Shown here: piece after piece, positions 1 to 20,798 of the stretch
How positions within the stretch are numbered: position 1 is the stretch's first letter
Layout of the letters: the number at the start of each line of letters is the position of its first letter
IMG/VR virus record: IMGVR_UViG_2534682080_000009
Reading direction: 5' to 3' (one strand)
DNA: 21,584 nucleotides
Source: a virus
Taxonomy: Duplodnaviria; Heunggongvirae; Uroviricota; Caudoviricetes
Program-made: the position numbers and the translations under genes
Notes under the pieces: model-generated
The model's database searches: none
The model's input: only the letters and a program-made list of their open reading frames with translations
What the model was told of the DNA's origin: nothing

Positions 1-1283
1 TTACAGACTTCTGGAAGGTTGCGCAGCTCTTACAACACGCGGTTGATCTTCCGCAGCGTCTTCCAGCGCACTTAAATCACGGTCTTTCACCTCTGGCATT
101 TTCAGCGCAGAGATTAAACCAATCACTGAATATGCCATGATCATAATGGCGATCGGATACCAGGATTCCGTCATGGTGCAGAAAATACCCGCCAGGATAG
201 GACCAAAACCGGAAGCGATAAGACCACCAATTTCTTTAGAAATAGCCATCCGGGTAAAGCGGTTTTTACAGCCGAACATTTCTGCCATGGTAATGTTTTC
301 CAGAGCAAATAATCCCAGCACCGCACAGTTATGAATCACAATCAGTGCAACCATAATGGTGCTCGGGGCATAGCTTTTATCTACAATGATAGAAAGCATT
401 GGCCATGCCAGCACAATCGCGGAGGTATTCATAATAATATACGGGATCCGGCGACCAATTTTATCGGATAACCAACCAAGGAACGGAATGGTCATAAAGC
501 CGAGAATCGAACTGATCATCAATGCATCTGTTGGAATTGCTTTGTTAAACAATAACGTCTGCACTAAATAGCCTGCAAGGAAAGTCTGAATTAACCCGGA
601 GTTACCCGCCTGACCAAAACGCAGCCCTGTTGCCAGCCAGAAGGATTTGCTCTGGAACATGCTACCAGCAGGTGCAGGTTTTGCTGTCGGTTGGTTACTG
701 TCGTTAACCTTCTCAAAGACCGGGCTTTCTTTCAGATTCATACGCAACCAGATAGCAAAGACCATCACGACAACACTCGCCAGGAACGGTATACGCCATC
801 CCCACGCCAGCAGTTCCTCTTTACTGAGAATGAAGAACATAAAGGCCCAGATTGCCGTTGCGCTCAAGGTTCCGCAGTTAGTTCCCATAGCCACAAATGA
901 GGAGATAATTCCGCGCTTACCTTTTGGCGCATATTCCGCCAGCATCGTACCGGCACCGGAAATTTCCGCACCTGCACCCAACCCCTGAATAATACGCAAC
1001 GTCACCAGCAAGATGGGTGCAAAAACACCAATCTGTGCATAGGTCGGTAACACACCAATTAAGGTGGTACAGATCCCCATCATGGTGATGGTAATAAAGA
1101 GCACTTTTTACGCCCTATTCTGTCGCCCATTTTGCCGAAAATAAATGCTCCGACAATACGCGCCACATAACCTGCACCGTAGGTTCCCATTGCCAGAATT
1201 AACGCCATTGCCGTTGATGATTCAGGAAAAAATATTTCATGAAACACTAACGCTGCGCCGAGCGAATATAACTGGAAATCCAT
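1..1283 (-). CDS. ydfJ: MFS-family metabolite:H+ symporter (host gene); reading frame broken near 1105-1109, possible pseudogene or sequencing error
   Basis: Two overlapping minus-strand ORFs (1080..1283, 67 aa; 1..1104, 367 aa) together read as one MFS transporter. The N-terminal piece carries the MFS signature GKMGDRIGRKK and the rest is polytopic hydrophobic. The frame switches at an A5 run (minus strand) at 1105-1109. The stop codon is at 1-3. The ydfJ name is inferred from the ydfK-pin-tfa-stf neighbourhood known from the E. coli K-12 Qin region, and is not verified. Confidence 0.7.
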
Positions 1284-1887
1284 AATTCACAGGTGTTTTT
1301 TCCCATCCTGTGGTTTCCTTGGCGTTTTCTAGGTTTTTTCAGATAGTTGCATTTTTTTAAAAAGCATCCTAAGTTCGATCTCAGTGTCTATCTGGGGCCT
1401 ATTTCTGTCCCATATATGCCCCAAAAAAACTCCCCAACAGATAAGTAGTTTTTTCATGGATTTATGCGTAAAATCAAGAACGGCTGGAAATCATTCAATA
1501 CTCACACTATCGAAAAATTTACCAGCCAATCGCAGCACGTTCTTGCATAAGGCGTGTCTGCGGTTTTTCAACTATTCAGATACATCACTCCCATCACATT
1601 CATTCCTCCGCATCAAAGGCATATAGGCTATATCACCTTGATATTTTTCTTTTTCAGATAAAAACTGTTATCTATGTATACTTTTAAACCCAATCCGTGT
1701 AGAGTCTCTGCATAAGATAGTTTGCAGTTGCCGCTTCAGCTTGCGCCATAAACCGCCTGATTTTTGCTGCCACCTGTTAGCATTCCTGTATACCTGAAAC
1801 GACAATGTTTATCTACGAACTTTAAGAACACCCAAGATAAAAATTGTCAACTATATCATATATAACACATTACTAATTCGAGGCTAT

Positions 1888-2001
1888 ATGAACAGCATAC
1901 TGATAATCACATCTCTCCTTATCATATTCAGCATTTTTAGTCATGCCCTAATAAAATTAGGGATTGGCATATCCAATAACCCAGACAAAACCGATGTATA
2001 A
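1888..2001 (+). CDS. candidate small hydrophobic membrane peptide (37 aa), hypothetical
   Basis: ATG at 1888 preceded by GAGG (1880-1883), stop TAA at 1999-2001. Translation [37 protein letters not shown]: one predicted transmembrane helix plus a short polar tail. It is below the 60-aa cutoff of the ORF track. AT-rich context means a chance ORF is not excluded. Confidence 0.25.
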
Positions 2002-2069
2002 GTCAACATATCCTGAATCAGACATACAATATCGCAATGAAAATCAATAATATTTTAAGGAATATCTTC

Positions 2070-2303
2070 ATGAAATCAAAAGACACCCTAAAGTGGTTCC
2101 CTGCGCAGCTTCCTGAAGTAAGAATTATCCTAGGGGATGCTGTAGTGGAAGTAGCAAAACAGGGAAGACCTATCAATACCAGAACATTGCTTGATTACAT
2201 TGAAGGAAACATAAAGAAAAAATCATGGCTGGATAACAAAGAATTATTACAAACAGCGATATCAGTTCTTAAAGACAACCAAAATTTAAATGGTAAAATG
2301 TAA
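2070..2303 (+). CDS. ydfK: YdfK/YnaE-family small prophage protein (cold-shock-associated, function unknown)
   Basis: The ORF 2037..2303 contains MKSKDTLKWFPAQLPEVRIILGDAVVEVAKQGRPINTRTLLDYIEGNIKKKSWLDNKELLQTAISVLKDNQNLNGKM, recognised as the YdfK/YnaE family. The start at 2070 is preferred because AAGGA lies 9 nt upstream, whereas the ATG at 2037 has no Shine-Dalgarno. Confidence 0.8.
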   Translation: MKSKDTLKWFPAQLPEVRIILGDAVVEVAKQGRPINTRTLLDYIEGNIKKKSWLDNKELLQTAISVLKDNQNLNGKM

Positions 2304-2619
2304 TATAATAAACTTACTTTTTTATCATTTTTCCACTTTAACAACATTTTGCTCCACTTTTCCACGACCAAACAACTTGAAATCTGGTTAAAATAACACG
2401 CAACACTATTCTTCTTCCTTGAGTCCGCCCGGAACTCGAAAAACAAACCGAGTTAAAGCCATTTTTCACAAAATCGATTTTGGGTCTCACCAAAATTACG
2501 GGGTTGCATACGCATTCGTTTATTTTCGAACGTGTACATACAAATATGCACAAAAATAATCATAATTATTTTCTGAGATGCATTATGATATGAACACCAA
2601 TTTCGTATAGAGTCTCACT

Positions 2620-3210
2620 ATGTCTCAAATTTTTGCTTACTGTCGGATATCAACGCTGGATCAGACCACCGAAAATCAACGCCGGGAAATCGAAAGTGCA
2701 GGTTTTAAAATCAAACCTCAGCAAATAATCGAAGAACACATTAGCGGCTCAGCAGCAACCAGTGAGCGTCCTGGTTTTAACCGGTTGCTTGCTCGCCTGA
2801 AATGTGGTGATCAATTGATTGTGACAAAACTGGATCGCCTTGGTTGTAATGCAATGGATATCAGGAAAACAGTGGAACAACTGACCGAAACAGGTATCAG
2901 AGTGCATTGCTTAGCATTGGGGGGCATTGACCTGACCAGTCCAACAGGAAAAATGATGATGCAAGTAATTTCAGCAGTCGCTGAATTTGAACGAGACCTT
3001 TTACTTGAACGCACTCATTCCGGGATAGTAAGAGCCCGCGGCGCAGGGAAACGTTTTGGTCGACCACCTGTGTTAAATGAAGAACAGAAACAGGCGGTAT
3101 TCGAACGAATTAAGTCAGGTGTAAGTATAAGTGCCATTGCCCGGGAATTCAAAACCTCGCGGCAAACCATTTTAAGAGCCAAAGCAAAACTTCAGACACC
3201 TGACATATAA
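2620..3210 (+). CDS. pin: Pin/Gin/Hin-family serine site-specific DNA invertase
   Basis: 196-aa ORF with the serine-recombinase N-terminal catalytic region (YCRISTLDQ with the catalytic Ser, [13 protein letters not shown]) and a C-terminal helix-turn-helix ([17 protein letters not shown]). Recognised as close to the e14/Rac/Qin Pin proteins. Confidence 0.9.
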
Positions 3211-3307
3211 AAAATAATCTCGGTGTGAGATGCTTTACGTCTTCCAAGCCCCCTTCCTTGCCGTAAATGGAAAGATACATCTAATTATAGAATTTATATG
3301 TTTTACC

Positions 3308-3883
3308 CTACGGCAGTGCTGGCCATTCAATATCCTGTGCAGTTGACGTATCAACACGGTTCAGCAATACCCGATACTTTTTCCATGCTTCCAGCAACGA
3401 GATTTCTTCCTCCGTTGCAATTTCCAGATCTGCAGCATCCTGAAGCGGCGCAATATGCTCACTGGCTACCTGCATCAGGTTGTTTTTTGTTTCTTCCGCC
3501 TCCCGGATCCGGAACAGTTTTTCTGCTTCCGTATCCTTCACCCAGGCTGTGCCGTTCCACTTCTGAAACTCCCCTTCCGGCGATAACCAGGTAACATTTT
3601 CCGGTAACGGACCGAGTTCAGAAATAAATAACGCGTCGCCGGAAGCCACGTCATAAACCGTTTTACCCCGATGATCTTCAACGAGATGCCACGATGACTC
3701 ATCACTGTTGAAAACAGCCACGAAGCCAGCCGGAATATCTGGCGGTGCAATATCGGTACTGTTTGCTGGCAGACCTGTATGAGGCGGAATATATGCATCA
3801 CCTTCACCAATAAATTCATTAGTTCCGGCCAGCAGATTATAAATTTTTATGGTCCGTGGTTGTTCACTCATTCTGAATGCCAT
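3308..3883 (-). CDS. tfa: tail fibre assembly protein (Tfa chaperone)
   Basis: 191-aa ORF directly downstream of the tail-fibre C-terminus on the same strand. Its ATG overlaps the stf stop as TAATG, with GAGG 8 nt upstream. Recognised as lambdoid Tfa from sequence and position. Confidence 0.85.
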
Positions 3884-4877
3884 TATGCAAGCCTCACAAT
3901 ATAGTTAAATGCGATGTTTTTGACGGTGTTTTCCGCGTTACCAGCAGCGTTAACGGTGATGGTGTGTCCATGTGAACCAATCGCAACGGAGTGCGTATGA
4001 GCACCAATACCGACAGTATGTGCATGTGCGCCTGCGCTTGCAGCAGTGCCGGACAGCGAGTGGGTATGAGCACCATCTGATGATGTCTTCCCTGCATTAC
4101 GAGTCTGGCCACTACCGCTTGTTGTGCTCATAATCCCCGCGCTTAGATTTGAAATCGCGGTATAACCATTAGGGAAAATGCTCGTGTTCGTGCCACCAAA
4201 TGCACCGGAACTCTTGTGTTGGTGCGCACCGGCACTATTTGCGGTCCCGCTAATACTATGGGTATGCGCCCCGGTGTTATTCGTGGATTTGGTTCCGTAA
4301 TCAAACGACGATGTGGTTTTCGTCCCCAAATCCGTACTGGATGCGCTGGCGCTGTGGGTGTGCGATTTAATGCCGTCCTGTTCCTGAGATAATACGGCCC
4401 GACCACTGGCGGGCTTGCCCTTAATCGTCCAGCCACGCATATCAGGGATCACGCCTGACGGATAAGCAACTGCAAGTTTCGGGTATGCAGATTTGTCAAA
4501 AGTCTGCCCCTGCATCAGGGCATAACCAGACGGAACGGTATCTGATGGCCACGGGATTGGTGCACCGACTGGATAAAACTCTGCAGGAGGATGAGCCGAG
4601 GTGTAAAGCTGCGCCCACGGCGACCAGTTTGCGTCGGTCGTATCCCGTCGTGAACGAATAAATGCCGGAGCATGAGCACCGCTTGTACCACTCCAGCCGA
4701 TGAGTAACTCACCTTCGCCAACGGCTGTCATCCCTTTCAGGTGAATGATATTTCCATACGCTGTTGGATATCCGTTGTTATACACCTCGTATAACTCAAG
4801 ACCTGCTGCCCCCTGCGTATTGTCTGTCAGCGCGGTTACCCGACCTTTTGAAGCCAGATTAACTGATGATACTGCTG
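3883..4877 (-). pseudogene. stf: side tail fibre protein Stf, C-terminal portion, separated from its N-terminal portion by IS3
   Basis: ORF 3883..4890 (the last 13 nt lie inside the IS3 end). The protein has Gly/Ser/Thr-rich repeats with GAHTHS/GAHAHT His motifs typical of phage distal tail-fibre tips. Its frame is continuous with the N-terminal part across the IS3 junction (codon phase checked by hand). Confidence 0.8.
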
Positions 4878-4907
4878 TGATCCTACCCACGTAATATGGA
4901 CACAGGC

Positions 4908-5774
4908 CTAAGCGAGGTTCTTGTTTTCAAATTGTTCCGGACTGAGGCCGCCACACCAACTGTGCCGCCGCCACCGATTGTAATCACATTCGATATAATT
5001 AAACACCGTTGCCCGCATTATTTCCCGGCTGATAAAGTGTTCTCCATGGATACATTCCACTTTCAGCGAATGAAAGAAGCTTTCCACGCAGGCATTATCG
5101 TAGCAGCAACCTTTTGCGCTCATACTTCCACGCAGATTATGCCGCTTCAGTTGCGCCTGATAATCTGCTGAACAGTACTGGCCTCCACGGTCCGTGTGAA
5201 CGATAACGTTCCGGGGCCTCTTACGCCGCCACAGCGCCATCTGCAGGGCATCGCAGGCCAGTTGCGCCGTCATGCGTGGCGACATTGACCAGCCAATAAC
5301 GGCACGTGACCACAGGTCAATGACCACTGCCAGATACAGCCAGCCTTCATCTGTACGTAAGTACGTGATGTCTCCTGCCCACTTCTGGTTCGGGCCACTG
5401 GCGTAAAAATCCTGCTCCAACAGATTTTCTGACACAGGCAGGCCGTGTGCGCGGTAGCTGACCGGGCTGAACTTCCGGGAGGCCTTTGCCCTCAGTCCCT
5501 GACGGCGCAGGCTTGCCGCCACGGTTTTTACGTTAAAGGGGTAACCCTGAGCACGCAGTTCATCCGTCAGGCGTGGGGCACCGTAACGCTGTTTTGACCG
5601 GGTAAAAGCCGCGAGGACAACGCTGTCGCAGTGTTGGCGGAACTGCTGACGCGTGCTTATCCTTGTCCGCCGCTGACACCACGTATACCAGCCGCTGCGG
5701 GCCACCCGGAGCACGCGGCACATTGCTTTGATGCTGAACTCAGCCTGATGTTTTTCAATAAAGACATACTTCAT
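4908..5774 (-). CDS. insF: IS3 transposase OrfB (integrase/DDE catalytic part, made as an OrfAB fusion by frameshifting)
   Basis: 288-aa ORF recognised as IS3 OrfB (DDE-type domain, e.g. WAGDITYL...HTDRGGQY). Its start overlaps the orfA stop as ATGA. Confidence 0.9.
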
Positions 5775-6070
5775 TTCAGGCGCTTCGCGAAGTATGTCGC
5801 GGCCTTTTGGAGGATAGCCAGCTCTTCATCCCGTTCTGCCAGCTGGCGTTTGAGACGTGCAATCTCGGTAGACATCTCCAGTTCACGTTCAGAAGACGTC
5901 TGCTGATTTTGCTGTTTACTGCGCCAGTTGTAGAGTTGTGATTCATACAGGCTGAGTTCACGGGCTGCGGCAGTAACACCGATGCGTTCAGCAAGCTTCA
6001 GGGCTTCACTGCGAAATTCAGGCGAATGCTGTTTACGGGGTTTTTTACTGGTTGATACTGTTTTTGTCAT
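5771..6070 (-). CDS. insE: IS3 transposase OrfA (HTH DNA-binding part)
   Basis: Translation [54 protein letters not shown]... recognised as IS3 OrfA. ATG at 6070. Confidence 0.9.
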
Positions 6071-6135
6071 GTGAGTCACCTCTGACTGAGAGTTTACTCA
6101 CTTAGCCGCGTGTCCACTATTGCTGGGTAAGATCA

Positions 6136-8218
6136 CTGTTCCACCTGACGGTAACGCCCCGATCTCTGATGCCGTTGGCTTATTTCTGGAGTTATAGTCC
6201 CTTCGCCAGCCAGGTGAATAATCTGTTCCGTGATTAATATAGGTAAACTGGGCGTTAGTTGTTCCACCACCAGTGGAGGTGGTCGGTGTGGTAATGCGGA
6301 TCGTCATCGCTGACTTTATCCCCATTACTTCAATGACAGCTCCGGCGAGATGAATATTACCGCAGTCAGTATCAGTAATGATTTTATTATTGCCATAAGA
6401 CCAGGAACCCTTGCACATCCAGTATGGATGGTTAAATGCTCCCTGAGAATCCAGCCACTCGATAAACTGTGCAGTCGTCCAGTTTCCTGTTGTTGTGCTT
6501 ACTGACCCACCGAAGGCACGGCAGGCACCAATATTTTTCGTAAAGGTATCTTTGCCAGGGATATCCGCACCGTTCTGATCTTTCTGCAGACGTTTCTCAG
6601 CATTGTCATTGGCTGCTTTTACTGCCTTTGGTGTCGCGGCAAGCGTTTCAGACGTGCTGTTGGTCGCGCTGCTTAGCTGGATTATCCCTTTCTGTGCTGT
6701 CGTTGCATCCTGTGCGGTGTATTTCCCGTTAGCCAGGTCATACGCGGCCTTAACGGCTTTTGGTGTTGCCGCCAGTGACTCGGAAGTGCTGTTAGTCGCA
6801 CTACTGAGCTGTACTATCCCCTTTTTCGTCGTGCTCGCATCCTCAAGCGCCACGGCGGATGCAATATCCTCTGCCCGTTTTGCTGCTGTCTCGGCGCGCG
6901 TTGCTGCGGATTCTGCCGTACTTTTGCTCTGAGCTGCCGCCGTCGCACTGCCAGCAGCCTCTGTCGCCTTCGTGGATGCCGTCGTGGCGCTGCTCTTCGC
7001 TGCTGACGCTTGTCTGGTCGCCTCATCTTTTGAAGCAGACGCCGATGATGCCGATGACGCCGCCGAACTGGCTGACGATGCGGCAGCCGTTTTTGAGGAT
7101 TCTGCGCTGGTTTCCGACGCTTTCGCGTTCGTTTCGGATGTCTTCGCTGCGGAAGCAGACCTCGCTGCTGCGCTGGCCTGTTCAGTGGCTTCGCCAGCCT
7201 TCGTTGTGGCTGTTGAAGCAGACGATGCAGCACTTTCTGCCGATTTTCCGGCGGCGGTGGCACTGGCTGAGGCCTGCCCGGCACTTGTTGACGCGGCACT
7301 GGCAGATAATGCAGCCGCTGTTTTTGAGTCTGCCGCAGCTGAGGCGCTCTGTCCCGCTGCCGTTTCAGAAGACCTGGCGTTCGTCTCGGACGTTTTTGCC
7401 GCCTTCGCAGAATTTGCTGCCGCCGTTGCCGAGGAAGCTGCGCTGCTGGCGCTCGAGGCTGCGTTCGTTTCTGATGATTTTGCCGCCTCTTTTGAAGCCG
7501 ACGCATCCCGGGCTGAGGTGGCAGCTTCTGACGCTTTCGTGGTCGCGGTGGATGCAGAAGTGGCTGCTGATTGTTGTGACGCTGCAGCATTCGTTTCTGA
7601 CGTTTTCGCGGCACTGGCACTGGTAGCTGCCGCGCTTTTTGAGGACTCTGCAGCGGCAGCACTTTTTGATGCTTCAGTGGCCTTTGTTGATGCCGTTCCT
7701 GCGCTGGAAGACGCTGACTGAGCCGACGAAGCGGCCTGTCCGGCTGACGTGCTGGCTGCGCGTGCTGAGCCTGCAGCATCAGTCGCATGGGTTGCCGCCT
7801 CACGGGCAGATGTGCCGGCATCGCCGGCTGACTTCTTCGCGGCTGCCGTGTTCTGTGCCACCGCGGACGCGTTACGCGCCACCTCTTCCACCATCAGTTC
7901 AAAACGGCGCAGAGCCTCCGGACGGGCATCATCCTCCGTCATGGCACCGAGAAAATCATTCAGCGTACCGGGTCGGGAATCTTCATACACGGTGATGGTC
8001 CCGGCATGTGACGGCGGGAATCCTTCCACCAACAGAATAACGCTGTACTGACCGTACTCAACGTCCATGCTGTAACGCCCGGCTTCATCCGGATTTTCTG
8101 AGGCCAGCGTGTTCACCACCACCGCGGTGCTGTTACGTTTTGCTTTCAGCTGGATTGTGCAGTTCTGTACCGGTTTTCCTGTGCCGTCTTTCAGTACACC
8201 TGAAATCTTTACTGCCAT
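6136..8218 (-). pseudogene. stf: side tail fibre protein Stf, N-terminal portion, truncated by the IS3 insertion
   Basis: ORF 6098..8224 reads MAVKISGVLKDGTGKPVQNCTIQLKA..., followed by a long Ala/Ser/Thr-rich low-complexity region and two KGI(V/I)QLSSATNSTSE(S/T)LAATPKAVKAA phage-fibre repeats. The ORF then runs 38 nt into the IS3 end before a stop. The likely start is the ATG at 8216-8218. Confidence 0.8.
6617..6832 (-). repeat. two ~75-bp imperfect direct repeats (period ~132 bp) inside stf, encoding the tail-fibre repeat motif
   Basis: DNA copies at about 6621-6694 and 6750-6828, encoding GI(I/V)QLSSATNSTSE(T/S)LAATPKA. Read directly from the sequence. Confidence 0.5.
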
Positions 8219-8228
8219 ATTCACCCCA

Positions 8229-8256
8229 CAAAAAAGCCCGCCTGAACAGGCGGGCT
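8229..8256 (-). terminator. putative intrinsic terminator downstream of lom
   Basis: Perfect 10-bp GC-rich inverted repeat AGCCCGCCTG/CAGGCGGGCT (8235-8244 and 8247-8256), followed on the minus strand by a run of six T (8235..8230). Confidence 0.5.
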
Positions 8257-8282
8257 GTCATAACACTGTGTTACCTGGCTAA

Positions 8283-8882
8283 TCAGAACTTATAACCGAC
8301 ACCCACGATGAAACCGTCAGTGCGCCAGTCGCCACTGCCGGAGCCTTCATAAGCAATATCAATGGCCACGGATTCGGTCGGGTTAAACTGCACGCCAGCT
8401 CCCCACGCCAGAGACGTGTTGCTGTGGCGACCGTCATCACTTCCGGTCAGCACGTCGTGCGTTTTCCCCTTGTTGTCAGTTACGCGGAGATAATCCCCGG
8501 AGAAAGTCGACACACGGCTGTAAGCCATACCCGCCATCGCATACGCGCTGAACCATTCATTCACGCGCACAGACGGCCCCACCATCACGCTGAACCAGCG
8601 GTTACGCACGGAATCTTCATGCCAGCGGGTATCGCTGTAACGGGTAAGCTGGCGATTCTTGTCTCCTGCATAGCTGAATGACGTCACCAGCCCCAGTGTG
8701 TCCGTAAACTCATAACGGTATTTCACGTTAATCCCGTTAAGATCATCGCTGCCGGGAACGTTCGTCGAGGCATGAAGATACCCCGCGCTCAGCGTGGACT
8801 GATGTTCAGATGCCCATGCAGGCGCACCGGATACGGCCAGACAAATGGCTGCGGACAAAATGGCGGCATAAAGTTTACGCAT
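8283..8882 (-). CDS. lom: Lom outer-membrane protein (Ail/Lom family beta-barrel, lysogenic-conversion moron)
   Basis: 199-aa ORF with a signal peptide ([24 protein letters not shown]) and a C-terminus ending [25 protein letters not shown], recognised as Lom. It sits between J and stf as in lambda. GAGAGG Shine-Dalgarno before the ATG. Confidence 0.85.
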
Positions 8883-8904
8883 AATTACCTCTCGCTTTTC
8901 TGCA

Positions 8905-8930
8905 ATAAAAAAGGCACCATTTCTGGTGCC
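8905..8930 (-). terminator. putative intrinsic terminator between J and lom
   Basis: 7-bp stem GGCACCA/TGGTGCC (8913-8919 and 8924-8930) with a 4-nt loop, followed on the minus strand by TTTTTTATT (8912..8905). Confidence 0.45.
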
Positions 8931-8951
8931 CTTATATGGGTTATAACAATT

Positions 8952-11900
8952 TCAACGAATACTGATGCCGGAAGCGGCTTTTTTGGTCACAATCACCGTA
9001 CAGTCGGTGATATTGCCTGCCCCCTGATTGCCTTTCTGGAAAATCTTAAACTCCAGAGTGACGCTACCACCACCACTAGGCATATCAATAACTGCACTGT
9101 AACTACCGGGAATGGCCCCTTTAGTTTCTCTGGATGCGATTAATACGCCGTTTTTGCGAACTTCAAAACCATAACCCGTGTATCGCGTGCCTCCTGGGTT
9201 ATTTCCGCTCCCCGGATCGTCATACGCTATACCGTTAAAAATAATGGGCGGAATAATAATCTGGCGGTCAAAGTTATGATCATCGCTGATGGTGACTGTA
9301 ACCGTACCGTTTGGTGTTTCCGTGTTACCCCACGTACCGACTTTTTTCGGGAAGGCTTTTGATACAGCTTTAACGATATCCCCTCTGACCTGGGTCGCCT
9401 CCAGCATGCCCTTAATCGTACAGTTCTGGTTAATCGTGACATTGTTGAGCGTTCCTGAGTTCGCATTCACACTACCACTGATATCCGCATTTTTAGCGGT
9501 CAGCTTTCCGTCTGATGTCAGGGAAAATACCGGAGGACTGCCACCGCTGGTAATGGTGGGGGCCGTCAGGCGTTTCAGGAACACTTCATTCATGAATATC
9601 TGATCGCCCTGACCAACAAACATCGGCTTTTGTGTTGCCATTCGCAGGATTAATCATCGCAATCCTGTCTGCTGCCAGCAGCACCTGACTCTGCATGCCG
9701 TCAGGGGTGTTCTCAATACCGGCACCGATACCCGCAATATAAAGGCGTCCGTCCTGCATCTGCTGCAGCTTCACTGCCCACATGCTGTTCAGGTTATTAT
9801 TTGTATCAACCTGAACCTTCTGTATCTGCTGGATTGCCGCACTCTGGTCTTCCAGTTTCTTATTGACGGTCTGTGTTATTTCATTGCTGACATCCGTTAT
9901 GGTCGTCCTGATTTCAGTCAGGTCAGGCGCAAGCTGACCGTTATCAATCTGCGTCCACAGCTCCTGAGCCAGATGGGTTTTCCCTATCTCGCCTTTGAAA
10001 AAATCCAGATAGCCTGATGCATCATCACTCGGCTGACCGACAGCCTCCACGAATGCCGATTTGCCAACGGTGTTCACACTGCGAACGTAAAAATAATAAT
10101 CATGGCCCGGTTTGATATTGATACTGGCGGCTATCCAGTACAGTGCCGTACCAAGATAACGCGCGCTGGTTTCAACCTGCCTGATATCCGCAATCCGTTT
10201 TTCCGAGAACCAGAACTCAAACTGTACCGTCGGGTCATAAACCGCAAGATGCGGCGTGGCGGTTATCTGAAAATAGCCCGGCGTCAGCTCAATCCGCGAC
10301 GGCGCTGCCGGTGCGGCAATCCGGAACGATACCGACGCCGGATCGCCCTGCTGCCCCCACGCATTTACTGCCCGGACTGTCAGCCTGTAGTTCCCCAGAG
10401 CCAGTTGTGTGAAGCGGTAAGTGGTTTCCGTCGTCCGGGCCGTGCTGACCAGCCGCTCACGGCCGTCATCCGCTGCCACGGTCAGGCGAAGCAGGAAGCT
10501 CACGCCCTTCACCACCTTCGGCGTGTCCCAGCGCGCCAGCACCTGGTATTCCCCGCTGTCTGCGGTGACTTCTGCGGTCAGGTGCTGCACCGCTGGCGGC
10601 GTGACACCATTTACCGTGCCGCTCTGGTCGCCGTCAAAGTGCGCCCCGTTATCCACGATGGCCTCTTTTTCCGGTACATGCTGCACGGCGGTGATGGCAT
10701 ACGTGCCGTCGTCGTTCTCACGGATACTCACGCAGCGGAACAGGCGCTGGCGCAACGTCGACAGCTTCAGCCCCCATACGCTGTATTCAGCAACGCCGTC
10801 AGGAACACGGCTCACTTTCACCTTCACGCCGTCGGTGACGGACTGAACCTCCACGCTGACCGGACTCCCCTGCCCGTCAACCAGGCTTATCAGCGTGGTG
10901 CCGGAAGATGGCAGCGTGATTTCACGGTCGAGCGTCAGCGTCCGGGTCTGGCTGTTTACCGCCAGCACGCGCCCGCCGGTGCGGATACCGGCATAGTCAT
11001 CATCGCAGATTTCAATGACATCGCCCGGTACATGGCGAAGCCCTTCGGCACCCACGCTGAAGTCCACGGTCTGCGTTTCCAGCAGTTCTGTTTTAATCAG
11101 CCACAGCCCGGCGCGGTGTGCCTGCCCCCGGCTGGTACAGCCAAAAGCATCCATCTTCGTGACGTTACGACCGTAACGGGCAATGGCCCGCGTGTCCTCC
11201 ACAAGCTCTGTCGCCGTCTCCCAGCCGTTATTCGGGTCAATCCAGTTCACCTCAACGGCATTATGGCGGTCCTTCAGGGCGCTGAAGCTGTAGCGGAACG
11301 GCGCACCATCATCCGGCATCACCACATTACTGCGGTTATAGGTCCACACCTTATCCGACGGTCGGTCCTGCACGAACGTCAGCGTCTGCCCGTTCCATAC
11401 CGGCATACAGCGCATCGCAGAGCAGAAATCACTGAGCACATCCCACGCCTTGCGCTGTGTGGTCAGGTACGCATTACAGGTGATGCGCGGCTCTGTGCCG
11501 CCAAAACCGTCCGGCACCGACTGATCGCAATGCTGGCCGATGACATACAGCGCCCATTTGTCCACATCCGCCGCACCAAGACGTTTCCCCATGCCGTAGC
11601 GCGGATGGGTCAGCATATCCCACAGACACCAGGCCATGTTGTTGCTGTATGCTGGCTTAAACGTTCCGTCCCAGATACCGCTGTATTGCCGCGTCTGCGG
11701 GTTATAGTTCGACGGCACCTGCAGAATGCGCCCGCGCAGATGATAATTACGGCTCACCTGCTGGCTGCCGAACTGCTCCGAATCCACCTGCACGCCGACC
11801 AGTGCCGTGTTCGGGTAGCACTGTTTCACATCGATGATTTCGGTGTATGACGACCAGAGCGTTTTGTTCTGCAGCTGGTCTGTGGTGCTGTCCGGCGTCA

Positions 11901-12450
11901 TCCTGCGCATCCGTATATTGAACGGGCGCGGCGGCAGGTTACCCACCACCACCGAGGCCAGATACTGCGAGGTGGTTTTGCCCTTAATGGTGATGTCTTT
12001 TTCCGTCACCCAGCCACCATTACGCTGGATCTGAACCAGCAGGCGGACTTCCGACGGATTCCGGTCCCCCTTTGAGGTGGTTTCCACCAGTGCCTGCACG
12101 CCGAAGGTAAAGCGCAGACGGTCGATGTTTGCAGACGTAATGGTGCGGGTGATCGGCGTGTCATATTTCACTTCCGTACCCAGCACCGTCTCGGAGCCGG
12201 AGGATTCAAACCCCTCCGGCGGTGTCTGCTCCTGCTCACCGGCACGGAACACCACCGTGACACCGGAGATGTTGGTATTCCCCTCAGTGTCCAGCACCGG
12301 CGTACTGTTCAGCAGCACGCTTTTTAATCCATCCACCGGACCTTCAACCGGCCCTTCGCTGATGGCATCGATCACACTCAGCAGCTGCGTGGACTTCAGG
12401 TTGTCCTTCGCTTCGCGCGGGGTATGCCCCTTACTGCTGCCTTTACCCAT
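8952..12450 (-). CDS. J: tail tip / host-specificity protein J (central tail fibre); frame broken near 9625-9631, possible pseudogene or sequencing error
   Basis: ORF 9586..12450 (954 aa) starts [34 protein letters not shown]..., recognised as lambda gpJ. It is continued in another frame by ORF 8952..9641 (229 aa). The two overlap by 56 bp, consistent with a single-base indel. Confidence 0.85.
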
Positions 12451-12510
12451 TCCTCACGCTCCATAAATGACAAAACCGCCCGCAGGCGGTTTCACATAAA
12501 ACATTTTGCA

Positions 12511-13182
12511 TCAGCGACCAATCACCACAACCTGACCACCGTCCCCTTCGTCTGCCGTGCTGATCTCCTGAGAAACCACGCGAGACCCCACGCGCATTTC
12601 CCCGTACAGAACAGGCAGAACATTGCCCTGGGCAACCATGTTATCCAGTGAGGAGAAATAGGTGTTCTGCTTACCGTTATCCGTTGTCTGTGTACGGGGA
12701 GTTCTGGCTTTCGGTGCCAGCATCTGCGCCACACCACCGAGCACCATACTGGCACCGAGAGAAAACAGGATGCCGGTCATACCACCGGTCCCAATGGCTG
12801 CCCCCCATGCTGCAAGGGTGGCTCCGGCGGTAAAGAATGATCCGGCAATGGCGGCAGCCCCCAGGACAATCTGGAATACGCCACCTGACTTGGCCCCGGC
12901 GACTCTGGGAACAATATGAATCACAGCGCCATCAGGCAGAGTCTCATGTAACTGCGCCGTTAACCCGGACGTGCTGACGTCCCGCCCGGCAATCCGTACC
13001 TGATACCAGCCGTCGCTCAGTTTCTGACGAAACGCCGGGAGCTGTGTGGCCAGTGCCCGGATGGCTTCAGCCCCCGTTTTCACACGAAGGTCGATGCGGC
13101 GACCAAATCGTTGTAAATCCCCGTAAAGGCAGATGCGCGCCATGCCCGGTGACGCCAGAGGGAGTGTGTGCGTCGCTGCCAT
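12511..13182 (-). CDS. I: tail tip assembly protein I
   Basis: 223-aa ORF MAATHTLPLASPGMARICLYGDLQRFGRR... recognised as lambda gpI. Its 5' end overlaps the 3' end of K by 103 bp. Confidence 0.9.
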   Translation of the reverse strand: MAATHTLPLASPGMARICLYGDLQRFGRRIDLRVKTGAEAIRALATQLPAFRQKLSDGWYQVRIAGRDVSTSGLTAQLHETLPDGAVIHIVPRVAGAKSGGVFQIVLGAAAIAGSFFTAGATLAAWGAAIGTGGMTGILFSLGASMVLGGVAQMLAPKARTPRTQTTDNGKQNTYFSSLDNMVAQGNVLPVLYGEMRVGSRVVSQEISTADEGDGGQVVVIGR

Positions 13183-13824
13183 TTGTCGGTGTACCTCTCT
13201 CGTTTGCTCAGTTGTTCAGGAATATGGTGCAGCAGCTCGCCGTCGCCGCAGTAAATTGCGGCGTGATTCGGCACTGATGAACCAAAACAGCACAGCAGCA
13301 CATCGCCCGGCTGTGCCGCTGACAACGGCACCTGATACAGCCCCGTCGCCTCCAGATTATCCAGATAGAGATTCTGGCCGTTACGCCACCAGTCATCCTC
13401 ACGATAAAAGTCCGGCATCTCAATCCCCGCCAGATGATAAGCATCCCGGAACAGTGTGTAACAGTCCGTCACACCGTGCTCAAAGCGCCGCCCGGTGAGA
13501 TGCGGCACACAGCGGAACTTATGAATCGTCCCCCGGCAGACCAGCCACCACGGCAAAATCACTCTGCACCTGCAGCCGCCGGTCGGCCTCACTCAGCCAG
13601 GGCAGACCACCGGGGTGGCTGTGGACCAGCGCCACAATCTCACCCTGCATTTCTGCCTGCAGCCAGTCTTCCGGCGACATACGGAAATACGCCTCCGGCT
13701 CACCGGAGATATTCACGCAGGGAAAATATCTTTCCCCCTCCGGCGTGCTTACCACGAAGCCGCACGACTCCGCTGGCGCACATCGCCGGGCGTGCGCCAG
13801 AATCGCTGATTCTGTCTGTGTCAT
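13080..13824 (-). CDS. K: tail tip assembly protein K (JAMM/MPN-like plus NlpC/P60-like); frame broken near 13555-13558
   Basis: ORF 13519..13824 (MTQTESAILAHARRC..., with the JAMM-like motif HSHPGGLPWLSEAD) and ORF 13080..13592 (..LPWWLVCRGTIHKF..., Cys-containing NlpC/P60-like part) are in different frames. The break falls at a T run (minus strand GATTTTGCC). Confidence 0.8.
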
Positions 13825-13829
13825 GGGAT

Positions 13830-14527
13830 TTACTGCGAAAGTTTGTTAATGGAAAGGAAGCTGCCAAAGTTGCCGACATTATTGCGAAACTTACAGCCAC
13901 TCAGGCATTTGCTGCATTTATCCTTCGTGATATCGGACGTCGGCTGGTCATATTCATCCGCGACCGCCGGACCGCTATAACCGCACTCATCGCCGCGATA
14001 GGTCCAGGTGCAGGTGTTGGCCAGCATGATACGTCCCGGAAAAACAGCGCCATCCGTTTCCGTCGGCGTGGACAGTACAAAGGAGGCACTCACCGCGCTC
14101 AGTTCGCTGCACTGCTCAATGCGCCAGCGGCTGATCACCTCCTGCTCCGGATCGGCGTAACTGTTTCCGTTGACGAAGTTCACCGCATCCAGAAAACGGG
14201 CGTAAACCTTACGCCGGACCACCGTTCCGCCGACCAGACTCTGCATATCTTCCGCCATCCCGGTGACCATACCGTACAGGTTAGAAACCGTCAGCGTGGG
14301 GCGCGTACTGGTGCCTTTGCCATTCAGTTCAAAACCGCTCCCCTGAATGGGATACGGCTGATACTGTCGCCCCTGCCAGGTGACCGGCTCACCTTTTTCG
14401 TTCTGCTCATTACAGAAAAATAACGTTCTCCACCGACCTCTGTCAGGTCGATTTCCCAGAGCACCACGCTGGCCGACTGCTCCGCACGGGTGCATTCATT
14501 CAGTGTTTCCTGCCGGATATCCTGCAT
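13830..14527 (-). CDS. L: tail tip protein L; frame broken at 14416-14420
   Basis: ORF 14324..14527 starts MQDIRQETLNECTRAEQSASVVLWEIDLTEVGGERYF and ORF 13830..14495 carries the remainder, ending with the Cys cluster KDKCSKCLSGCKF. The frame switches at a T5 run on the minus strand. The ATG overlaps the M stop as ATGA. Confidence 0.85.
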
Positions 14528-14856
14528 CAGTTCACCACCTGTTCAAACTCTGCGCTGAACTCAACACGCAACATACTGACCCGCGACGACCATTTTACGC
14601 AGGTCACCTTTATCTGCCGCCACTCATAAGGCGGCGTCCACAGAAAGGATTTCCAGCCCCCGTGCTCTTCCAGAAACGACTCCAGTACCGTGGCCTCCTC
14701 ACGGGGGACAGAAAGCGTCACGCTGTACGTTTTCAGGTTGGCATTCAGCCCGGCAGGCGCTCGCTGAGAATAGCCATCACCAAAGCGCACCTTTCTTACA
14801 GAAGGGACCGAAGCCACATCCATACCGGGTTTCACTTTCCAGCGGAAGGTCTTCAT
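14527..14856 (-). CDS. M: tail tip protein M
   Basis: 109-aa ORF MKTFRWKVKPGMDVASVPSVRKVRFGDGYSQRAPAGLNANLK... recognised as lambda gpM. Intact. Confidence 0.9.
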   Translation of the reverse strand: MKTFRWKVKPGMDVASVPSVRKVRFGDGYSQRAPAGLNANLKTYSVTLSVPREEATVLESFLEEHGGWKSFLWTPPYEWRQIKVTCVKWSSRVSMLRVEFSAEFEQVVN

Positions 14857-17415
14857 CGTCCACCTCCGGAGAACAGGCCACCATCACGCATCTGTGTCTG
14901 AATTTCATCACGGGCACCCTTGCGGGCCATGTCATACACCGCCTTCAGAGCAGCCGGACCTATCTGCCCGTTCGTGCCGTCGTTGTTAATCACCACATGG
15001 TTATTCTGCTCAAACGTCCCGGACGCCTGCGACCGGCTGTCTGCCATGCTGCCCGGTGTACCGACATAACCGCCGGTGGCATAGCCGCGCATCAGCCGGT
15101 AAAGATTCCCCACGCCAATCCGGCTGGTTGCCTCCTTCGTGAAGACAAATTCACCACGGTGAACAATCCCCGCTGGCTCATATTTGCCGCCGGTTCCCGT
15201 AAATCCTCCGGTTGCAAAATGGAATTTCGCCGCAGCGGCCTGAATGGCTGTACCGCCTGACGCGGATGCGCCGCCACCAACAGCCCCGCCAATGGCGCTG
15301 CCGATACTCCCGACAATCCCCACCATTGCCTGCTTAAGCAGAATTTCTGTCATCATGGACAGCACGGAACGGGTGAAGCTGCGCCAGTTCTGCTCACTGC
15401 CGGTCAGCATCGCCGCCATATTCTGTGCAATACCATCAAAGGTCTGCGTGGCTGCACTTTTTACCTGCGACATACTGTCCGTGGCGCTCTCTTCCCACTC
15501 ACTCCAGCCGGACTTCAGGCCTGCCATCCAGCTCCCGCGAAGCTGGTCTTCAGCCGCCCAGGTCTTTTTCTGCTCTGACATGACGTTATTCAGCGCCAGC
15601 GGATTTATCGCCATACTGTTCCTTCAGGCGCTGTTCCGTGGCTTCCCGTTCTGCCTGCCGGTCAGTCAGCCCCCGGCTTTTCGCATCAATGGCGGCCCGT
15701 TTTGCCCGTTGCTGCTGTGCGAATTTATCCGCCTGCTGCGCCAGCGCGTTCAGGCGCTCCTGATACGTAACCTTGTCGCCAAGTGCAGCCAGCTGGCGTT
15801 TGTACTCCAGCGTCTCATCTTTATGCGCCAGCAGGGATTTCTCCTGTGCAGACAGCTGGCGACGTTGCGCCGCCTCCTCCGGTACCGCGAACTGACTCTC
15901 CGCCTTCCACAAATCCCGGCGCTGCTGGCTGATTTTCTCATTTGCTCCGGCATGCTTCTCCAGCGTCCGGAGTTCTGCCTGAAGCGTCAGCAGGGCAGCA
16001 TGAGCACTGTCTTCCTGACGATCGCCCGCAGACACCTTCACGCCGGACTGTTTCGGCTTTTTCAGCGTCGCTTCATAATCCTTTTTCGCCGCCGCCATCA
16101 GCGTGTTGTAATCCGCCTGCAGGATTTTCCCGTCTTTCAGTGCCTTGTTCAGTTCTTCCTGACGGGCGGTATATTTCTCCAGCGGCGTCTGCAGGCGTTC
16201 ATAAGCCTTCTGCGCCTCTTCGGTATATTTCAGCCGTGACGCTTCGGTATCGCTCTGCTGCTGCGCATTTTTGTCCTGTTGACTCTGCTGCTCAGCCTTC
16301 TTTCGGGCGGCTTCAAGCGCAAGACGGGCCTTTTCACGATCATCCCAGTAACGCGCCCGCGCTTCATCGTTAACAAAATAATCATCCTTGCGCAGATTCC
16401 AGATATCGTCCGCTTTCTTAAACGCGGCCTCTGCCTTAATCAGCATCTCCTGCGCGGTATCAGGACGACCAATATCCAGCACCGCATCCCACATGGATTT
16501 GAATGCCCGTGCTGTCCTGTCTGCCCAGGTTTCCAGCGTGCCCATGTTCTCTTTCAGGCGGCGGGTCTGGTCATCAAACCCTTTCGTTGCGGCCTCGTTC
16601 GCCGCCTGCAATGCCCCGGCTTCATCGCCGGAACGCTGCAACTGAGCAACATACGCAATCTGCTCCGCCGTCACGTTACTGGAACTGGCGTGCCATCGCC
16701 GTCAGCCCGACGTCGGGTCTGTGGTCAGCTTCCCGAAGGCTTCAGCGACCTTGTCCACCTCCACGCCGGATGCAGAGGAGAAACGCGCCACACTCTGGCT
16801 GATGGACGCAATCTGAGCCTCACCGCTTACCCCCGCCTTAACCAGTGCGCTGAGTGACTCGCTGGTCTGGTTAAACGTCAGCCCTGCCGCCTGCCCGGCT
16901 CTGGACAGGACCAGCATACGATCTGCCGTCAGTCCCGCCTGATTGCCGGAAAGGACCAGCGTTTTGTTGAAATCGGACAGGGTTGAGTTGCCCTGATACC
17001 AGGCATACGCCAGCGCTCCGGTCGCCACCGCCAGCGAGGTAGCCCCCACCATCGGCAGGGTGATCGCACCGGCAAGCCCCCGGAACATGGGGATCATCCC
17101 GCCGAAGGAGTCCTTCACCTGACCCCCCTGTTGCAGCAGGATCAGCCACGGACTTTGCCCGCCTGCAAGCTGCGTGGCCACGTCGGTGAACTGTGCAGGC
17201 AGCATACGCATGGCGGCTTTATACTGCCCGACGGAAATCCCCGCTTTCTGTGCAGCCAGCGCCTGTCGGCTCAGCGACTGTTCAACGACTGCCGCTGTTT
17301 TTTTCGCATCAGTTTCCGTACCGGAAAAATGACGCCTGACTCTGGCCATCTGCTCGCCAAATCTGGCCGCATCCAGACTTAAATCAACGACCAGATCGCC
17401 TACCGGTTCAGCCAT
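14853..17415 (-). CDS. H: tail tape measure protein H; disrupted by an internal out-of-frame patch with an in-frame TGA (about 16677-16708) and a further frameshift (about 15601-15609)
   Basis: Three consecutive ORFs (16702..17415, 15586..16674, 14853..15614) together give an 853-codon tape-measure-like protein (MAEPVGDLVVDLSLDAARF... to ...RDGGLFSGGGR) with a coiled-coil Ala/Gln/Glu/Lys-rich centre and Gly-rich C-terminus. The first two ORFs are in the same frame, separated by a 9-codon scrambled stretch. Confidence 0.85.
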
Positions 17416-17842
17416 ACCGGACTCCTCCTGCGATCCCTTCTGATACTGTCATCAGCATTACGTCATCCTCCGTCATGTCCGCCACATCCGGGGAAGCGGG
17501 GATAACTTCATTCCCTTCCGGGCCAAAGCGGACGCCTCCGGCAAGCCCTGCCGCTTTCTGCATCAGCACATCATCTTCAGGCTCTTCGTCAGCCTCACGC
17601 CGGTTCAGCAGACTGAAATCCAGCGGATGCATATCCGGATCGCTGAAAAACAGGCTGAGCACGGTGTACGTCAGCCCGGAAAAGTGCATATCCAGCAGAA
17701 CATCATGAAAATAATGGGTACTGTAAAAGCGGTGCCAGTCGGCATACTCCGTGGATGACATCCCGGCAAGCATGGCACGCCAGTCGGGTCGCCCCATCTC
17801 TCGCGCCAGTTTCAGGGCAAAACTCAGCTCACCATCGAACAC
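17408..17842 (-). CDS. T: tail assembly protein T reading frame (expressed as the G-T fusion by programmed -1 frameshift)
   Basis: 144-codon frame overlapping the 3' end of G, translation ...HRFYSTHYFHDVLLDMHFSGLTYTVL... recognised as lambda gpT. No independent Shine-Dalgarno expected. Confidence 0.8.
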   Translation of the reverse strand: MFDGELSFALKLAREMGRPDWRAMLAGMSSTEYADWHRFYSTHYFHDVLLDMHFSGLTYTVLSLFFSDPDMHPLDFSLLNRREADEEPEDDVLMQKAAGLAGGVRFGPEGNEVIPASPDVADMTEDDVMLMTVSEGIAGGVRYG

Positions 17843-18246
17843 TTTCCCGCAGAAACAGGCTCTGCAGGCCCGGCGTCCTCTGTCTGTTCAGGAGCATCAT
17901 TCACCACAAACTCATACATACCGGACAGCCGGTACACCACGTTTTCAGCATGAGAAATTGCCTCCGTGGGCCAGGTGGTAAGCACTTCCTGCTCAATCTG
18001 TTTAACGGCTTCATTCATGGAAGGCAGCTTTGTCTTCTTCGGATGGTTATGCCACAGGGACATCGCCACCAGAAACGCGCCGGTTCTGATGGCGTCTTCC
18101 ACAGTAAACTTCCGGTTGCTGTCTGACTCCGCCTGTTCTGCCTGCCGTTTCATCAGGGCGAGATGCTCAATACGCTGCAGGGCTGACAGTTCAGAAAGCG
18201 TGACGGTCACACCGTTATGTTCAAATGATTCGGTTTTCAGGAACAT
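17824..18246 (-). CDS. G: tail assembly chaperone G
   Basis: 140-aa ORF MFLKTESFEHNGVTVTLSELSALQRIEHLALMKRQAEQ... ending ..AGKCSMVS, recognised as lambda gpG. Confidence 0.9.
   Translation of the reverse strand: MFLKTESFEHNGVTVTLSELSALQRIEHLALMKRQAEQAESDSNRKFTVEDAIRTGAFLVAMSLWHNHPKKTKLPSMNEAVKQIEQEVLTTWPTEAISHAENVVYRLSGMYEFVVNDAPEQTEDAGPAEPVSAGKCSMVS
17842..17848 (-). other. programmed -1 ribosomal frameshift slippery heptamer GGGAAAG (G to G-T)
   Basis: Minus-strand sequence ...TCT GCG GGA AAG TGT TCG ATG GTG AGC TGA: GGGAAAG sits 6 codons before the G stop and the -1 frame continues into T. Confidence 0.7.
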
Positions 18247-18261
18247 CTCTGACTCCCCGGA

Positions 18262-19004
18262 TTAACTGGCGGTGACGGTGATTTCTGCAACCGCAGCAAA
18301 CTCACCATTACCGGATACAACCGGAATGTTGACCTTGCCTGCAGCAACGCCGTTCACGGTGACGGTCATACCACTGACCGACACGGTGGCTTTTGTTTTA
18401 TCCGCAGACACCGCACGAAAGCTCTTGTCGGTTACGCCCTCCGGCTGGAAGGCCACGGTCAGCGTGGTGCTCTGCCCTTTCACCACCGAGGTGCTGGCAG
18501 GCGTCACGGTCATGCCGGTTGCCGCTGTTACCGTGCTGCGATCTTCTGCCATCGACGGACGTCCCACATTGGTGACTTTCACCGTGCGGGTGATCACTTC
18601 CTTCGCCGTCTACCGCCTTACCGATACTGCTGACCCAGCCACGGAACACATCGACCGTGCCGTTCGGGAAGCGGATTTTATAGGCACGGGTATCGCCTTC
18701 ATTAAACCACGCCAGCAGCGCCTGCTGCCCCTGCTCTCCGGGCATCCACGCCAGCGTGAAGCTGGTATCTCCGGCAGATTTCTGCCCCTGCCCGGTCGCA
18801 GTCCAGTCTGCATCTTCATCATCGAGATAGCTGTCGTCATAGGACTCAGCGGTCAGTTCGCCGGGCGTCAGGTCTTTAACTTTTGCCAGACGCGACCAGT
18901 CAACGTCTGAAAGCGGATTTCGCATAAGGGTCACCGCTCCCCTTATAAACCCACAGGGTGGTCCCGGCACCTTTCACCGGCATTGTAGGATTTGGTACAG
19001 GCAT
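18262..19004 (-). CDS. V: major tail tube protein V; frame broken twice (about 18918-18920 and 18604-18612)
   Basis: ATG at 19004 gives [28 protein letters not shown] then leaves frame. ORF 18398..18970 carries ..[29 protein letters not shown]...VSSIGKAV in a second frame. ORF 18262..18597 carries [20 protein letters not shown]...AEITVTAS (Ig-like C-terminal domain) in the third frame. Confidence 0.85.
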
Positions 19005-19011
19005 AGCGTCC

Positions 19012-19407
19012 TCACATTTCATAGGTAATGACATAAGTCAGATCGGCTGAACTCCACAGGCCCGCATCATCGTCGCGCCGGTAGTCATAGCCGCTGGCCA
19101 CCATACTGGTGATCAAATCTGACAGTGCCGGGATATCGCTCATCACCGGATAAATCCGGGACTCCATCCACGCATCCAGCTCTGAATCCGGCACCTGAGC
19201 AGGCAGGAAAACTTCGATATGCAGCTCCGCCTGCCAGGTATCGCTGTCCAGCTCTTCGCCCGTGTATTCAGCGCCGGTGAGATAAACGGCAACTGCCGGA
19301 AAATCCGCCTCATCAAAAACAGCGGGGCGACCATCAAAAAACGTCGCCCCGGTGTCATGCTTCTCCAGTGCATCCAGTACGGCTGCACGGAGTTCAGTAT
19401 GTTTCAT
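19012..19407 (-). CDS. U: tail terminator protein U
   Basis: 131-aa [46 protein letters not shown]... recognised as lambda gpU. Overlaps the Z stop as ATGA. Confidence 0.9.
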
Positions 19408-19982
19408 CGCTTTATTACCATCCTCAGTTGATGCTGCAGCGCATAGCCCAGCTCTTTCGGAAGACGTTCACGCCGTATCCGCTCAATATTCTGTTTAAAC
19501 GCCGTGGTCAGCGGCACCGCCATCGGGATTTTCACCACATCAATGGGGTAACGGTTTTTCCCGGCCACACGCTGCATGACATGCCACCGGCCATTTTTCA
19601 GTTGCTGAATAAACGCGCCGGGAATACGACGGTTACCCACCACAAGCACGCTGCCGCCACCTTTCAGGGATGAACGCTGCCCCTTTTTACGACGCCTGCG
19701 GCGCGAAAGGACAACCCGCGCATTACCCAGCTTGATTACGGGCAAATCCCCCCGGTTAACTTTGATTCTGGCCTGCGGATTTTTGACCGTGGCCCTTTTC
19801 AGCCTGGCCCTTTCCTTTACCAGTTTCCGGCGTACCTTTGTCTCACGGGCAACTTGTGACGCCGACTGCGATATCGCGGATGAAGCAACGCGGTTAATGG
19901 CCATTGCGGCGGCACCAGGCACCGCCGTTTTGCTGATACGGCTGAGGTTTTCAACGGCCTGCTCAAGACCTTTTATGGCCAT
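19404..19982 (-). CDS. Z: tail completion protein Z
   Basis: 192-aa ORF MAIKGLEQAVENLSRISKTAVPGAAAMAINRVASS... recognised as lambda gpZ. Confidence 0.9.
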   Translation of the reverse strand: MAIKGLEQAVENLSRISKTAVPGAAAMAINRVASSAISQSASQVARETKVRRKLVKERARLKRATVKNPQARIKVNRGDLPVIKLGNARVVLSRRRRRKKGQRSSLKGGGSVLVVGNRRIPGAFIQQLKNGRWHVMQRVAGKNRYPIDVVKIPMAVPLTTAFKQNIERIRRERLPKELGYALQHQLRMVIKR

Positions 19983-19993
19983 ACATCCCCCTT

Positions 19994-20347
19994 TCAGCGG
20001 CGACGGTTAACGGCAGGCGGTACGCCCCGTCCAAGCCAGAGATGACAACTTCCGCCATCATCCGGCGAAACCCGATCTACCCAGAAATTTTCCTCACCGA
20101 TGGTCAGCGTGTCTCCACGCCGCAGCTGCCGCACCTCATCAGTCCGGACAAACAGGGACGGGCTGGAGCCTTCAACGCGCACGCCCTGTCCGGCATAGCT
20201 GATATTTTCAGGGTCATCAAAAACACCACGTATCACCGCACCTGACTGCTCACCGGATGTCATGGTGGCTGACGTTCCCATGTACCCGCGTATCGTTTCA
20301 TCGGCGCGGGCAATGGCAGCATCGAACAGGTTATCGAAATCAGCCAC
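19994..20347 (-). CDS. FII: head-tail joining protein FII
   Basis: 117-aa ORF MADFDNLFDAAIARADETIRGYMGTSATMTSGEQSGAVIRGVFDDPENI... recognised as lambda gpFII. Confidence 0.9.
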   Translation of the reverse strand: MADFDNLFDAAIARADETIRGYMGTSATMTSGEQSGAVIRGVFDDPENISYAGQGVRVEGSSPSLFVRTDEVRQLRRGDTLTIGEENFWVDRVSPDDGGSCHLWLGRGVPPAVNRRR

Positions 20348-20358
20348 AGCGCCTCCCG

Positions 20359-20757
20359 TTATTGCATTCTGGCCAGGCCGCGCTCTGTCATTTCGGCTGC
20401 CACACCGGCAGAGACACGAAACGCCGTTCCCGGCAGCACAAATGCCACAGGTTCATCCCGCGTGGCGTGAAGTGCATCAGTATGCAGCTTCACCAGTGCC
20501 ACGACCGTGACCAGTTCAGACGTATCCAGAATCACGGTATCCGGCTGCGCTGATCCCACCTCATTTTCATGTCCGGTCAGCACATTTTCCCGGCTGAGAG
20601 GGGTGTCCTGACCGGCAGTTTCATCCGTGTCATCAAGCTCCTCTTCCAGCTCTGCCACACGGAGCGCCAGTTCTTCTTTCGTCCCCGTCAGGCTGACATC
20701 ACGGTTCAGTTGTTCACCCAGCGAGCGGAGACGGGCAATCAGTTCATCTTTCGTCAT
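20359..20757 (-). CDS. FI: DNA packaging protein FI
   Basis: ORF 20359..20796. The likely start is the internal ATG at 20757 (MTKDELIARLRSLGEQLNRDV...), preceded by GGAGGAG, giving 132 aa as in lambda gpFI. Confidence 0.85.
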   Translation of the reverse strand: MTKDELIARLRSLGEQLNRDVSLTGTKEELALRVAELEEELDDTDETAGQDTPLSRENVLTGHENEVGSAQPDTVILDTSELVTVVALVKLHTDALHATRDEPVAFVLPGTAFRVSAGVAAEMTERGLARMQ

Positions 20758-20798
20758 GGACTCCTCCACAGAGAAACAATGGCCCCGAAGGGCCATGA

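Follow-up and report, generated by a model that had tools for sequence, protein, structure and literature searches.

A J gene with a phage 434-type receptor-binding end, frameshifted in the draft record of the Qin-locus prophage of Escherichia coli G58-1

Gene content of the prophage locus

The DNA analysed here (21,584 nucleotides; hereafter, the window) belongs to the draft assembly of Escherichia coli G58-1 (contig AFDX01000016.1, GCA_000225165.2), a commensal strain of phylogroup A according to a published strain listing (PMC4725725), and it holds a full-length lambdoid prophage at the Qin locus (ydfJ). The locus corresponds to that of the Qin prophage, here at full length, and cspI, ydfO, nohA, pinQ, tfaQ, ydfK and a truncated ydfJ occupy the same locus in close relatives. 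J lies on the minus strand, with the I, K, L, M, H, T, G, V, U, Z, FII, FI and E genes on its 5' side and, on its 3' side, lom (8283..8882), a side-tail-fibre gene (stf) interrupted by an IS3 element, tfa, pin and ydfJ. Its position is the one expected of a lambda-type gpJ in a tail cluster of the order H-M-L-K-I-J-lom-stf-tfa. Directly after the J stop codon we found a terminator-like hairpin with a T-run (8910..8933, minus strand); a terminator is annotated at the equivalent place in the phage 434 record, and in both phages a terminator and a lom-type gene follow J.

J is a single gene divided by one extra A

The coding sequence of J is distributed over two minus-strand open reading frames (ORFs). 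The upstream ORF (12450..9586, minus strand; 954 aa) encodes authentic J over residues 1-940, comprising the hub domains, FNIII, the Ig domains and the alpha-helical shaft, after which its last 14 residues, a shifted Ala among them, are read out of frame to a TGA stop; it is deposited in GenBank as EGX10823.1 ('host specificity protein J [Escherichia coli G58-1]', 1 contig). The downstream ORF (9641..8952, minus strand; 229 codons) is in the true J frame from its fifth codon (KPMFV...) and encodes a beta-prism fibre block (ORF residues 4-92) followed by the C-terminal Ig-like receptor-binding domain (ORF residues 93-229). The latter, which is of the phage 434 type, spans 8952..9365 on the minus strand (137 residues plus the stop codon) and is covered by PF12421 over ORF residues 93-228.

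The original prediction had J split over two frames, the first ending at 9586 and 229 codons lying in another, and placed a one-base indel near 9625-9631. The ORF list agrees with the split, and alignment with relatives located the indel as an extra A within the run at 9628..9631 (minus strand), which has four A residues in the window (A4) and three (A3) in all relatives. In the alignment with the nearest relatives, the minus-strand site reads ACAAAAGCCG in the window versus ACAAAGCCG in the relatives. The insertion follows codon 940 of 1165, at the junction where the long shaft module gives way to the 434-like module for the fibre and receptor binding. Read as deposited, the extra A would shift the frame after codon 940 (A3 to A4, 9628-9631), and the deposited J would stop 14 codons later, without the fibre prism and the receptor-binding domain. 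The single uninterrupted frame of ~1130-1165 codons expected of a lambda-type gpJ was thus absent from the window, but removal of one A from the 9628-9631 run restored a single J ORF of 1165 aa, equal in length to the J proteins of strains 6409 and AR435 (1165 aa) and different from the strain 6409 allele at three residues (R421Q, T850S and I1025F).

Pfam searches assigned FNIII-A_GpJ, Phage-tail_3, Ig_J, Ig_J_second and the first half of Phage_Tail_Tip to the long ORF, and the second half of Phage_Tail_Tip followed by Ig_GpJ_C (E=3e-26) to the short one, with Phage_Tail_Tip divided at profile positions 1-71 and 68-138. All six gpJ domains, as expected of a lambda-type gpJ, are therefore present in order across the two ORFs, and because the two ORFs jointly hold the complete ordered set, a chance pattern was ruled out. 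The two ORFs are one J gene, encoding the tip attachment protein or central tail fibre, that is cut in the middle of a fibre domain.

Mosaic structure of J

J is a three-part mosaic: residues 1-800 form a lambda-like part with the hub, FNIII and the Ig domains, residues ~815-940 a longer shaft, and residues 941-1165 a beta-prism fibre and receptor-binding domain of the 434 type. Identity to lambda J (NP_040600; PDB 8iyk and 8xcj, with LamB) was 94-100% over residues 1-800, 28-60% over residues 801-950 and 92% over residues 951-1000, where the conserved fibre block lies (80% for the fibre block as a whole); it was 25-50% in 50-residue windows over residues 1001-1150 and 57% over the final 14 residues. 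Domain order and the I-J-lom-stf gene order are likewise shared with lambda. The alpha-helical shaft module (window 9634-10010; J residues ~815-940) is a variant with ~50% identity both to the lambda shaft and to that of phage 434, and it exceeds the 434 shaft by 28 residues, which explains why this J type has 1165 aa and 434 J has 1137 aa. The frameshift sits exactly at the second mosaic junction. A chimera introduced at that junction by assembly was considered and ruled out, since the same junction occurs with A3 in 3,392 complete genomes.

The receptor-binding end and its predicted receptor

The receptor-binding domain was only 34% identical to that of lambda J, in a gapped alignment, and did not show the similarity to lambda J residues ~1000-1132, with their four receptor loops, that a LamB-binding domain would have; lambda binds LamB. 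In contrast, it matched the J protein of phage 434 (OL657226, UMO75286.1) at 133 of 137 residues (97%), which assigns it to the 434 type, and the last 226 residues of J were 96% identical to 434 J. Five residues differed over this 226-aa alignment, four of them in the receptor-binding domain and one further residue in the fibre; the window copy also differs from 434 J in being frameshifted. At the DNA level, the 3' end of J was 97.5-98.5% identical to phage 434, to lambda h434 hybrids and to mEp460, and a 901-base query that includes the whole receptor-binding end was matched over at least 80% of its length in 2,076 of 5,426 complete E. coli genomes.

Lambda comes to use OmpC, which is the 434 receptor, when its J is replaced by that of phage 434 (PMC3509688, PMC11101478, PMC12502783), and the 434 receptor has been given as OmpC since 1978 (Hantke, as cited in bioRxiv 10.1101/2022.09.30.509847). 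On the strength of this literature and of homology to 434, the tail tip of a phage with an intact copy of the allele would be expected to bind the OmpC porin rather than LamB. The suggestion that the last ~150 residues are unlike lambda J was borne out by the low identities over residues 1001-1150 and over the receptor-binding domain, and high identity to lambda J over the full C-terminus was not seen. The further suggestion that the phage lineage may use a different outer-membrane protein stood in part: the C-terminus is not that of lambda, and OmpC is the receptor expected by homology, but the module is far from unfamiliar, being that of classical phage 434 (h434). A new receptor-binding type directed at an unidentified outer-membrane protein, a reading to which the divergence from the lambda domain lends itself, is highly improbable and was rejected because of the 97% identity to phage 434; the near-identity of the 3' DNA (97-98%) to 434 and the h434 hybrids speaks against it as well, as does the fact that the 434 receptor is already known. 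Judged by this homology, the receptor-binding end is an already known one, the textbook 434/OmpC host-range module.

Among solved structures, the best matches to J were the A8 gpJ chimera (9wca, E=2e-70) and lambda gpJ (8xcj and 8iyk, ~1e-61), and the 434-type receptor-binding domain was not found among the structures returned by the PDB search. A8 (9wca/9wcb) is an engineered OmpC-binding gpJ chimera (Brodel et al., bioRxiv 10.1101/2022.09.30.509847) that has a C-terminal domain of the same Ig-like family. The receptor-binding domain of the window, however, is only 39% identical to that of A8, and A8 thus represents a different OmpC-binding lineage.

Distribution of the frameshift

To establish how widely the frameshift is shared, complete E. 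coli genomes were searched with a 69-mer around the site, which 3,416 of them carried. None of the 3,416 matched the A4 version at 99% identity or better, and 3,356 records matched at 98.6%, the value produced by the single gap alone. The exact 954-aa product was found on a single contig (AFDX01000016.1) among 153 billion gene positions. A 38-mer with A4 gave no matches in metagenome contigs, GTDB species-representative genomes or IMG/VR viral contigs, whereas the in-frame control, a 37-mer with A3 run over metagenome and genome collections, gave at least 120 metagenome matches and 6 species-representative matches, including Shigella flexneri, E. albertii and E. ruysiae. The intact J allele of strain 6409 was present on 809 contigs; the exact repaired J sequence was not found in the collection searched.

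The nearest counterparts of the window prophage are Qin-locus copies encoding J WP_000515714.1 (e.g. in strains 6409 and F41), which agree with it in locus, in J length and in DNA sequence (99.9% identity over 12.7 kb). Unlike the window, the Qin-locus copies of other E. coli have A3, J in frame and intact V, H, L and K genes. The frameshift is therefore not a trait of the phage lineage and is confined to this one draft record; across the lineage, J is intact. In addition, a 953-aa partial J that ends 13 codons past the frameshift (window ~9590) was found on 44 contigs, which shows that many drafts break there. That draft J contigs end at this place points to the conserved PMFV...TAPTITSGG fibre block acting as a repeat between co-resident lambdoid prophages.

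The same searches bear on whether the two frames could both be functional, through programmed +1 frameshifting or transcriptional slippage at A-AAA-G or as two separate proteins. The 229-codon ORF happens to start with an ATG at 9641, and A-rich sites allow slippage of tRNA-Lys. Relatives do not share the arrangement, however: thousands are in frame with A3 and none has A4. Transcriptional slippage would need a run much longer than four A residues, GCC in the A site is not known to stimulate +1 frameshifting, and unrelated frameshifts occur in four other tail genes of the region from V to J. The absence of A4 from relatives excludes a conserved programmed frameshift, and together with the shortness of the run it led us to rule out programmed +1 frameshifting and transcriptional slippage. 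We accordingly attach next to no probability to a functional reading of both frames.

Private differences are confined to a block from V to J

With strain 6409 as the reference for the whole window, we identified a block of private differences extending over 9.5 kb from V to J (9377..18920, minus strand), with 15 changes consisting of 8 single-base indels and 7 substitutions. The indels lie in V (18920, +A; 18611, +A), H (16709, -G; 16679, +G; 15606, +A), L (14421, -T), K (13558, +T) and J (9631, +A), and all five genes are broken by them in the window. Insertions outnumbered deletions by six to two, and two of the insertions fell outside homopolymer runs. Among the substitutions, 7 of 7 were nonsynonymous and 6 of 7 were at A/T sites. 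In gene H, a G was lost from a G4 run (16709) and a G was gained (16679) 30 nt downstream, with a stop codon (16702-16704) between them; this pair looks like a displaced consensus base, unlike a functional compensating pair.

The flanks of the block were clean. No difference was detected in the head genes (18921-21584) or in the stretch from the 3' end of J through lom to the N-terminus of stf (7460-9376). The IS3 element in stf showed one substitution, and positions 1-4785 showed only one substitution and a deletion in the ydfJ remnant. Private frameshifts were absent from the head genes, lom, stf, tfa, pin and the adjacent 10 kb of chromosome. Separately from the V-J block, an Ala/Ser-rich repeat region of stf (7229-7459) carried 14 substitutions in 230 bp relative to strain 6409, a patch that could reflect either recombination between repeats or repeat misassembly.

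The deletion in the ydfJ remnant (window 1110) changes an A6 run to A5 and yields ORFs of 67 aa and 360 aa. It was discarded as a private indel because the same products occur in hundreds of assemblies, including those of strains without the prophage, and it is a common natural allele.

In the next 10 kb of the same contig, ydfI, ydfZ, rspR, ydfG, dcp, ydeJ, ydeI and dgcZ were full length, and a single intergenic difference (A7 to A6) was found; only three stretches of these 10 kb were aligned at base level, the remainder being judged by intact genes. Apparent anomalies in dcp and mgtS proved to be gene-calling differences, and a shorter ydeE product (379 versus 395 aa) lies at the edge of the examined locus, where it runs off the end. 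The intact genes in the adjacent 10 kb ruled out indel errors across the assembly, and the errors or mutations are thus local to the prophage tail block.

Origin of the extra A

The extra A is probably a sequencing or assembly error in the draft, one of a sharply bounded block of private defects. Poor local sequence quality is the most likely cause, given that the extra A belongs to a private block that also breaks V, H, L and K. The composition of the block points to a poor consensus more than to natural decay: the ratio of indels to substitutions is near 1 (8:7), insertions are in excess, two of them lie outside homopolymers, and the lost and gained G of H resemble a consensus or phasing error. 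In natural E. coli mutation there are roughly ten substitutions per indel. Two further features point in the same direction: the sharp boundaries of the block, beyond which equally dispensable prophage neighbours are spared, and the position of the site on the border of a conserved stretch at which assemblies from short reads often break.

Alternatively, and with considerably less probability, the extra A could be a real, recent mutation private to the strain, with the Qin-locus prophage of G58-1 decaying and its J truncated. The private indels are confined to prophage tail genes while adjacent chromosomal genes are full length, as decay would give, and stf had already been interrupted by a genuine IS3 with a 3-bp target duplication; furthermore, the uniformly nonsynonymous substitutions are as expected without purifying selection, and A3 to A4 is a plausible natural slippage-type change. 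Neutral decay, however, should also reach the head genes, lom, tfa and the dead stf, none of which has a private frameshift. The near 1:1 ratio of indels to substitutions and the excess of insertions are unlike natural spectra, and a G lost and a G gained 30 nt apart in H would be an unlikely coincidence (about 2%, a rough estimate). Moreover, J is otherwise only three residues from the allele on 809 contigs, and the change is common to no other genome or metagenome searched. It is unlikely that all 15 private changes are real; if they were, they would represent a localised mutation burst, e.g. a single error-prone repair synthesis tract, that silenced the tail module of a prophage otherwise undamaged. 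A sequencing or assembly error remains the reading we favour.

Consequences for the tail tip and for annotation

In the structure described for lambda, the alpha-helical shaft is followed by the beta-sheet prism fibre and the receptor-binding domain (PMC11101478). Should the frameshift be real, the truncated J would retain the hub, which closes the tail tip, but none of the parts that contact the receptor. Together with the breaks in V, H, L and K, if these too are real, this would prevent assembly of a functional tail, and the J frameshift would add another private lesion to a dead prophage. Should it be an error, an ordinary J gene of predicted OmpC specificity is under-annotated in the record; more than a third of complete E. 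coli genomes have this J type. The finding itself is an ordinary one and matters little. In draft genomes, a frameshift in the host-range gene of a prophage should first be compared with close relatives and weighed against how densely private indels occur around it, before any biological meaning is given to it. Comparison with the modules of phage 434 and lambda allows a J gene to be assigned to a receptor-binding type.

Other features of the tail-fibre region

The IS3 element in stf occupies 4879-6136 of the window and is flanked by a 3-bp target duplication (CAG). Strain 6409 carries an independent IS3 in stf, 93 bp away and in the opposite orientation, with the target duplication GTG. The inverted orientation relative to strain 6409 raised the question of misassembly, which was ruled out because the window element is an independent insertion with its own 3-bp duplication; stf may be an insertion hot spot for IS3. 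In the related prophage of strain AR435 (L001 18201-19641), a SMODS nucleotidyltransferase and SLATT pair, which is absent from the window, lies beside the tail-fibre genes and looks like a candidate defence cargo.
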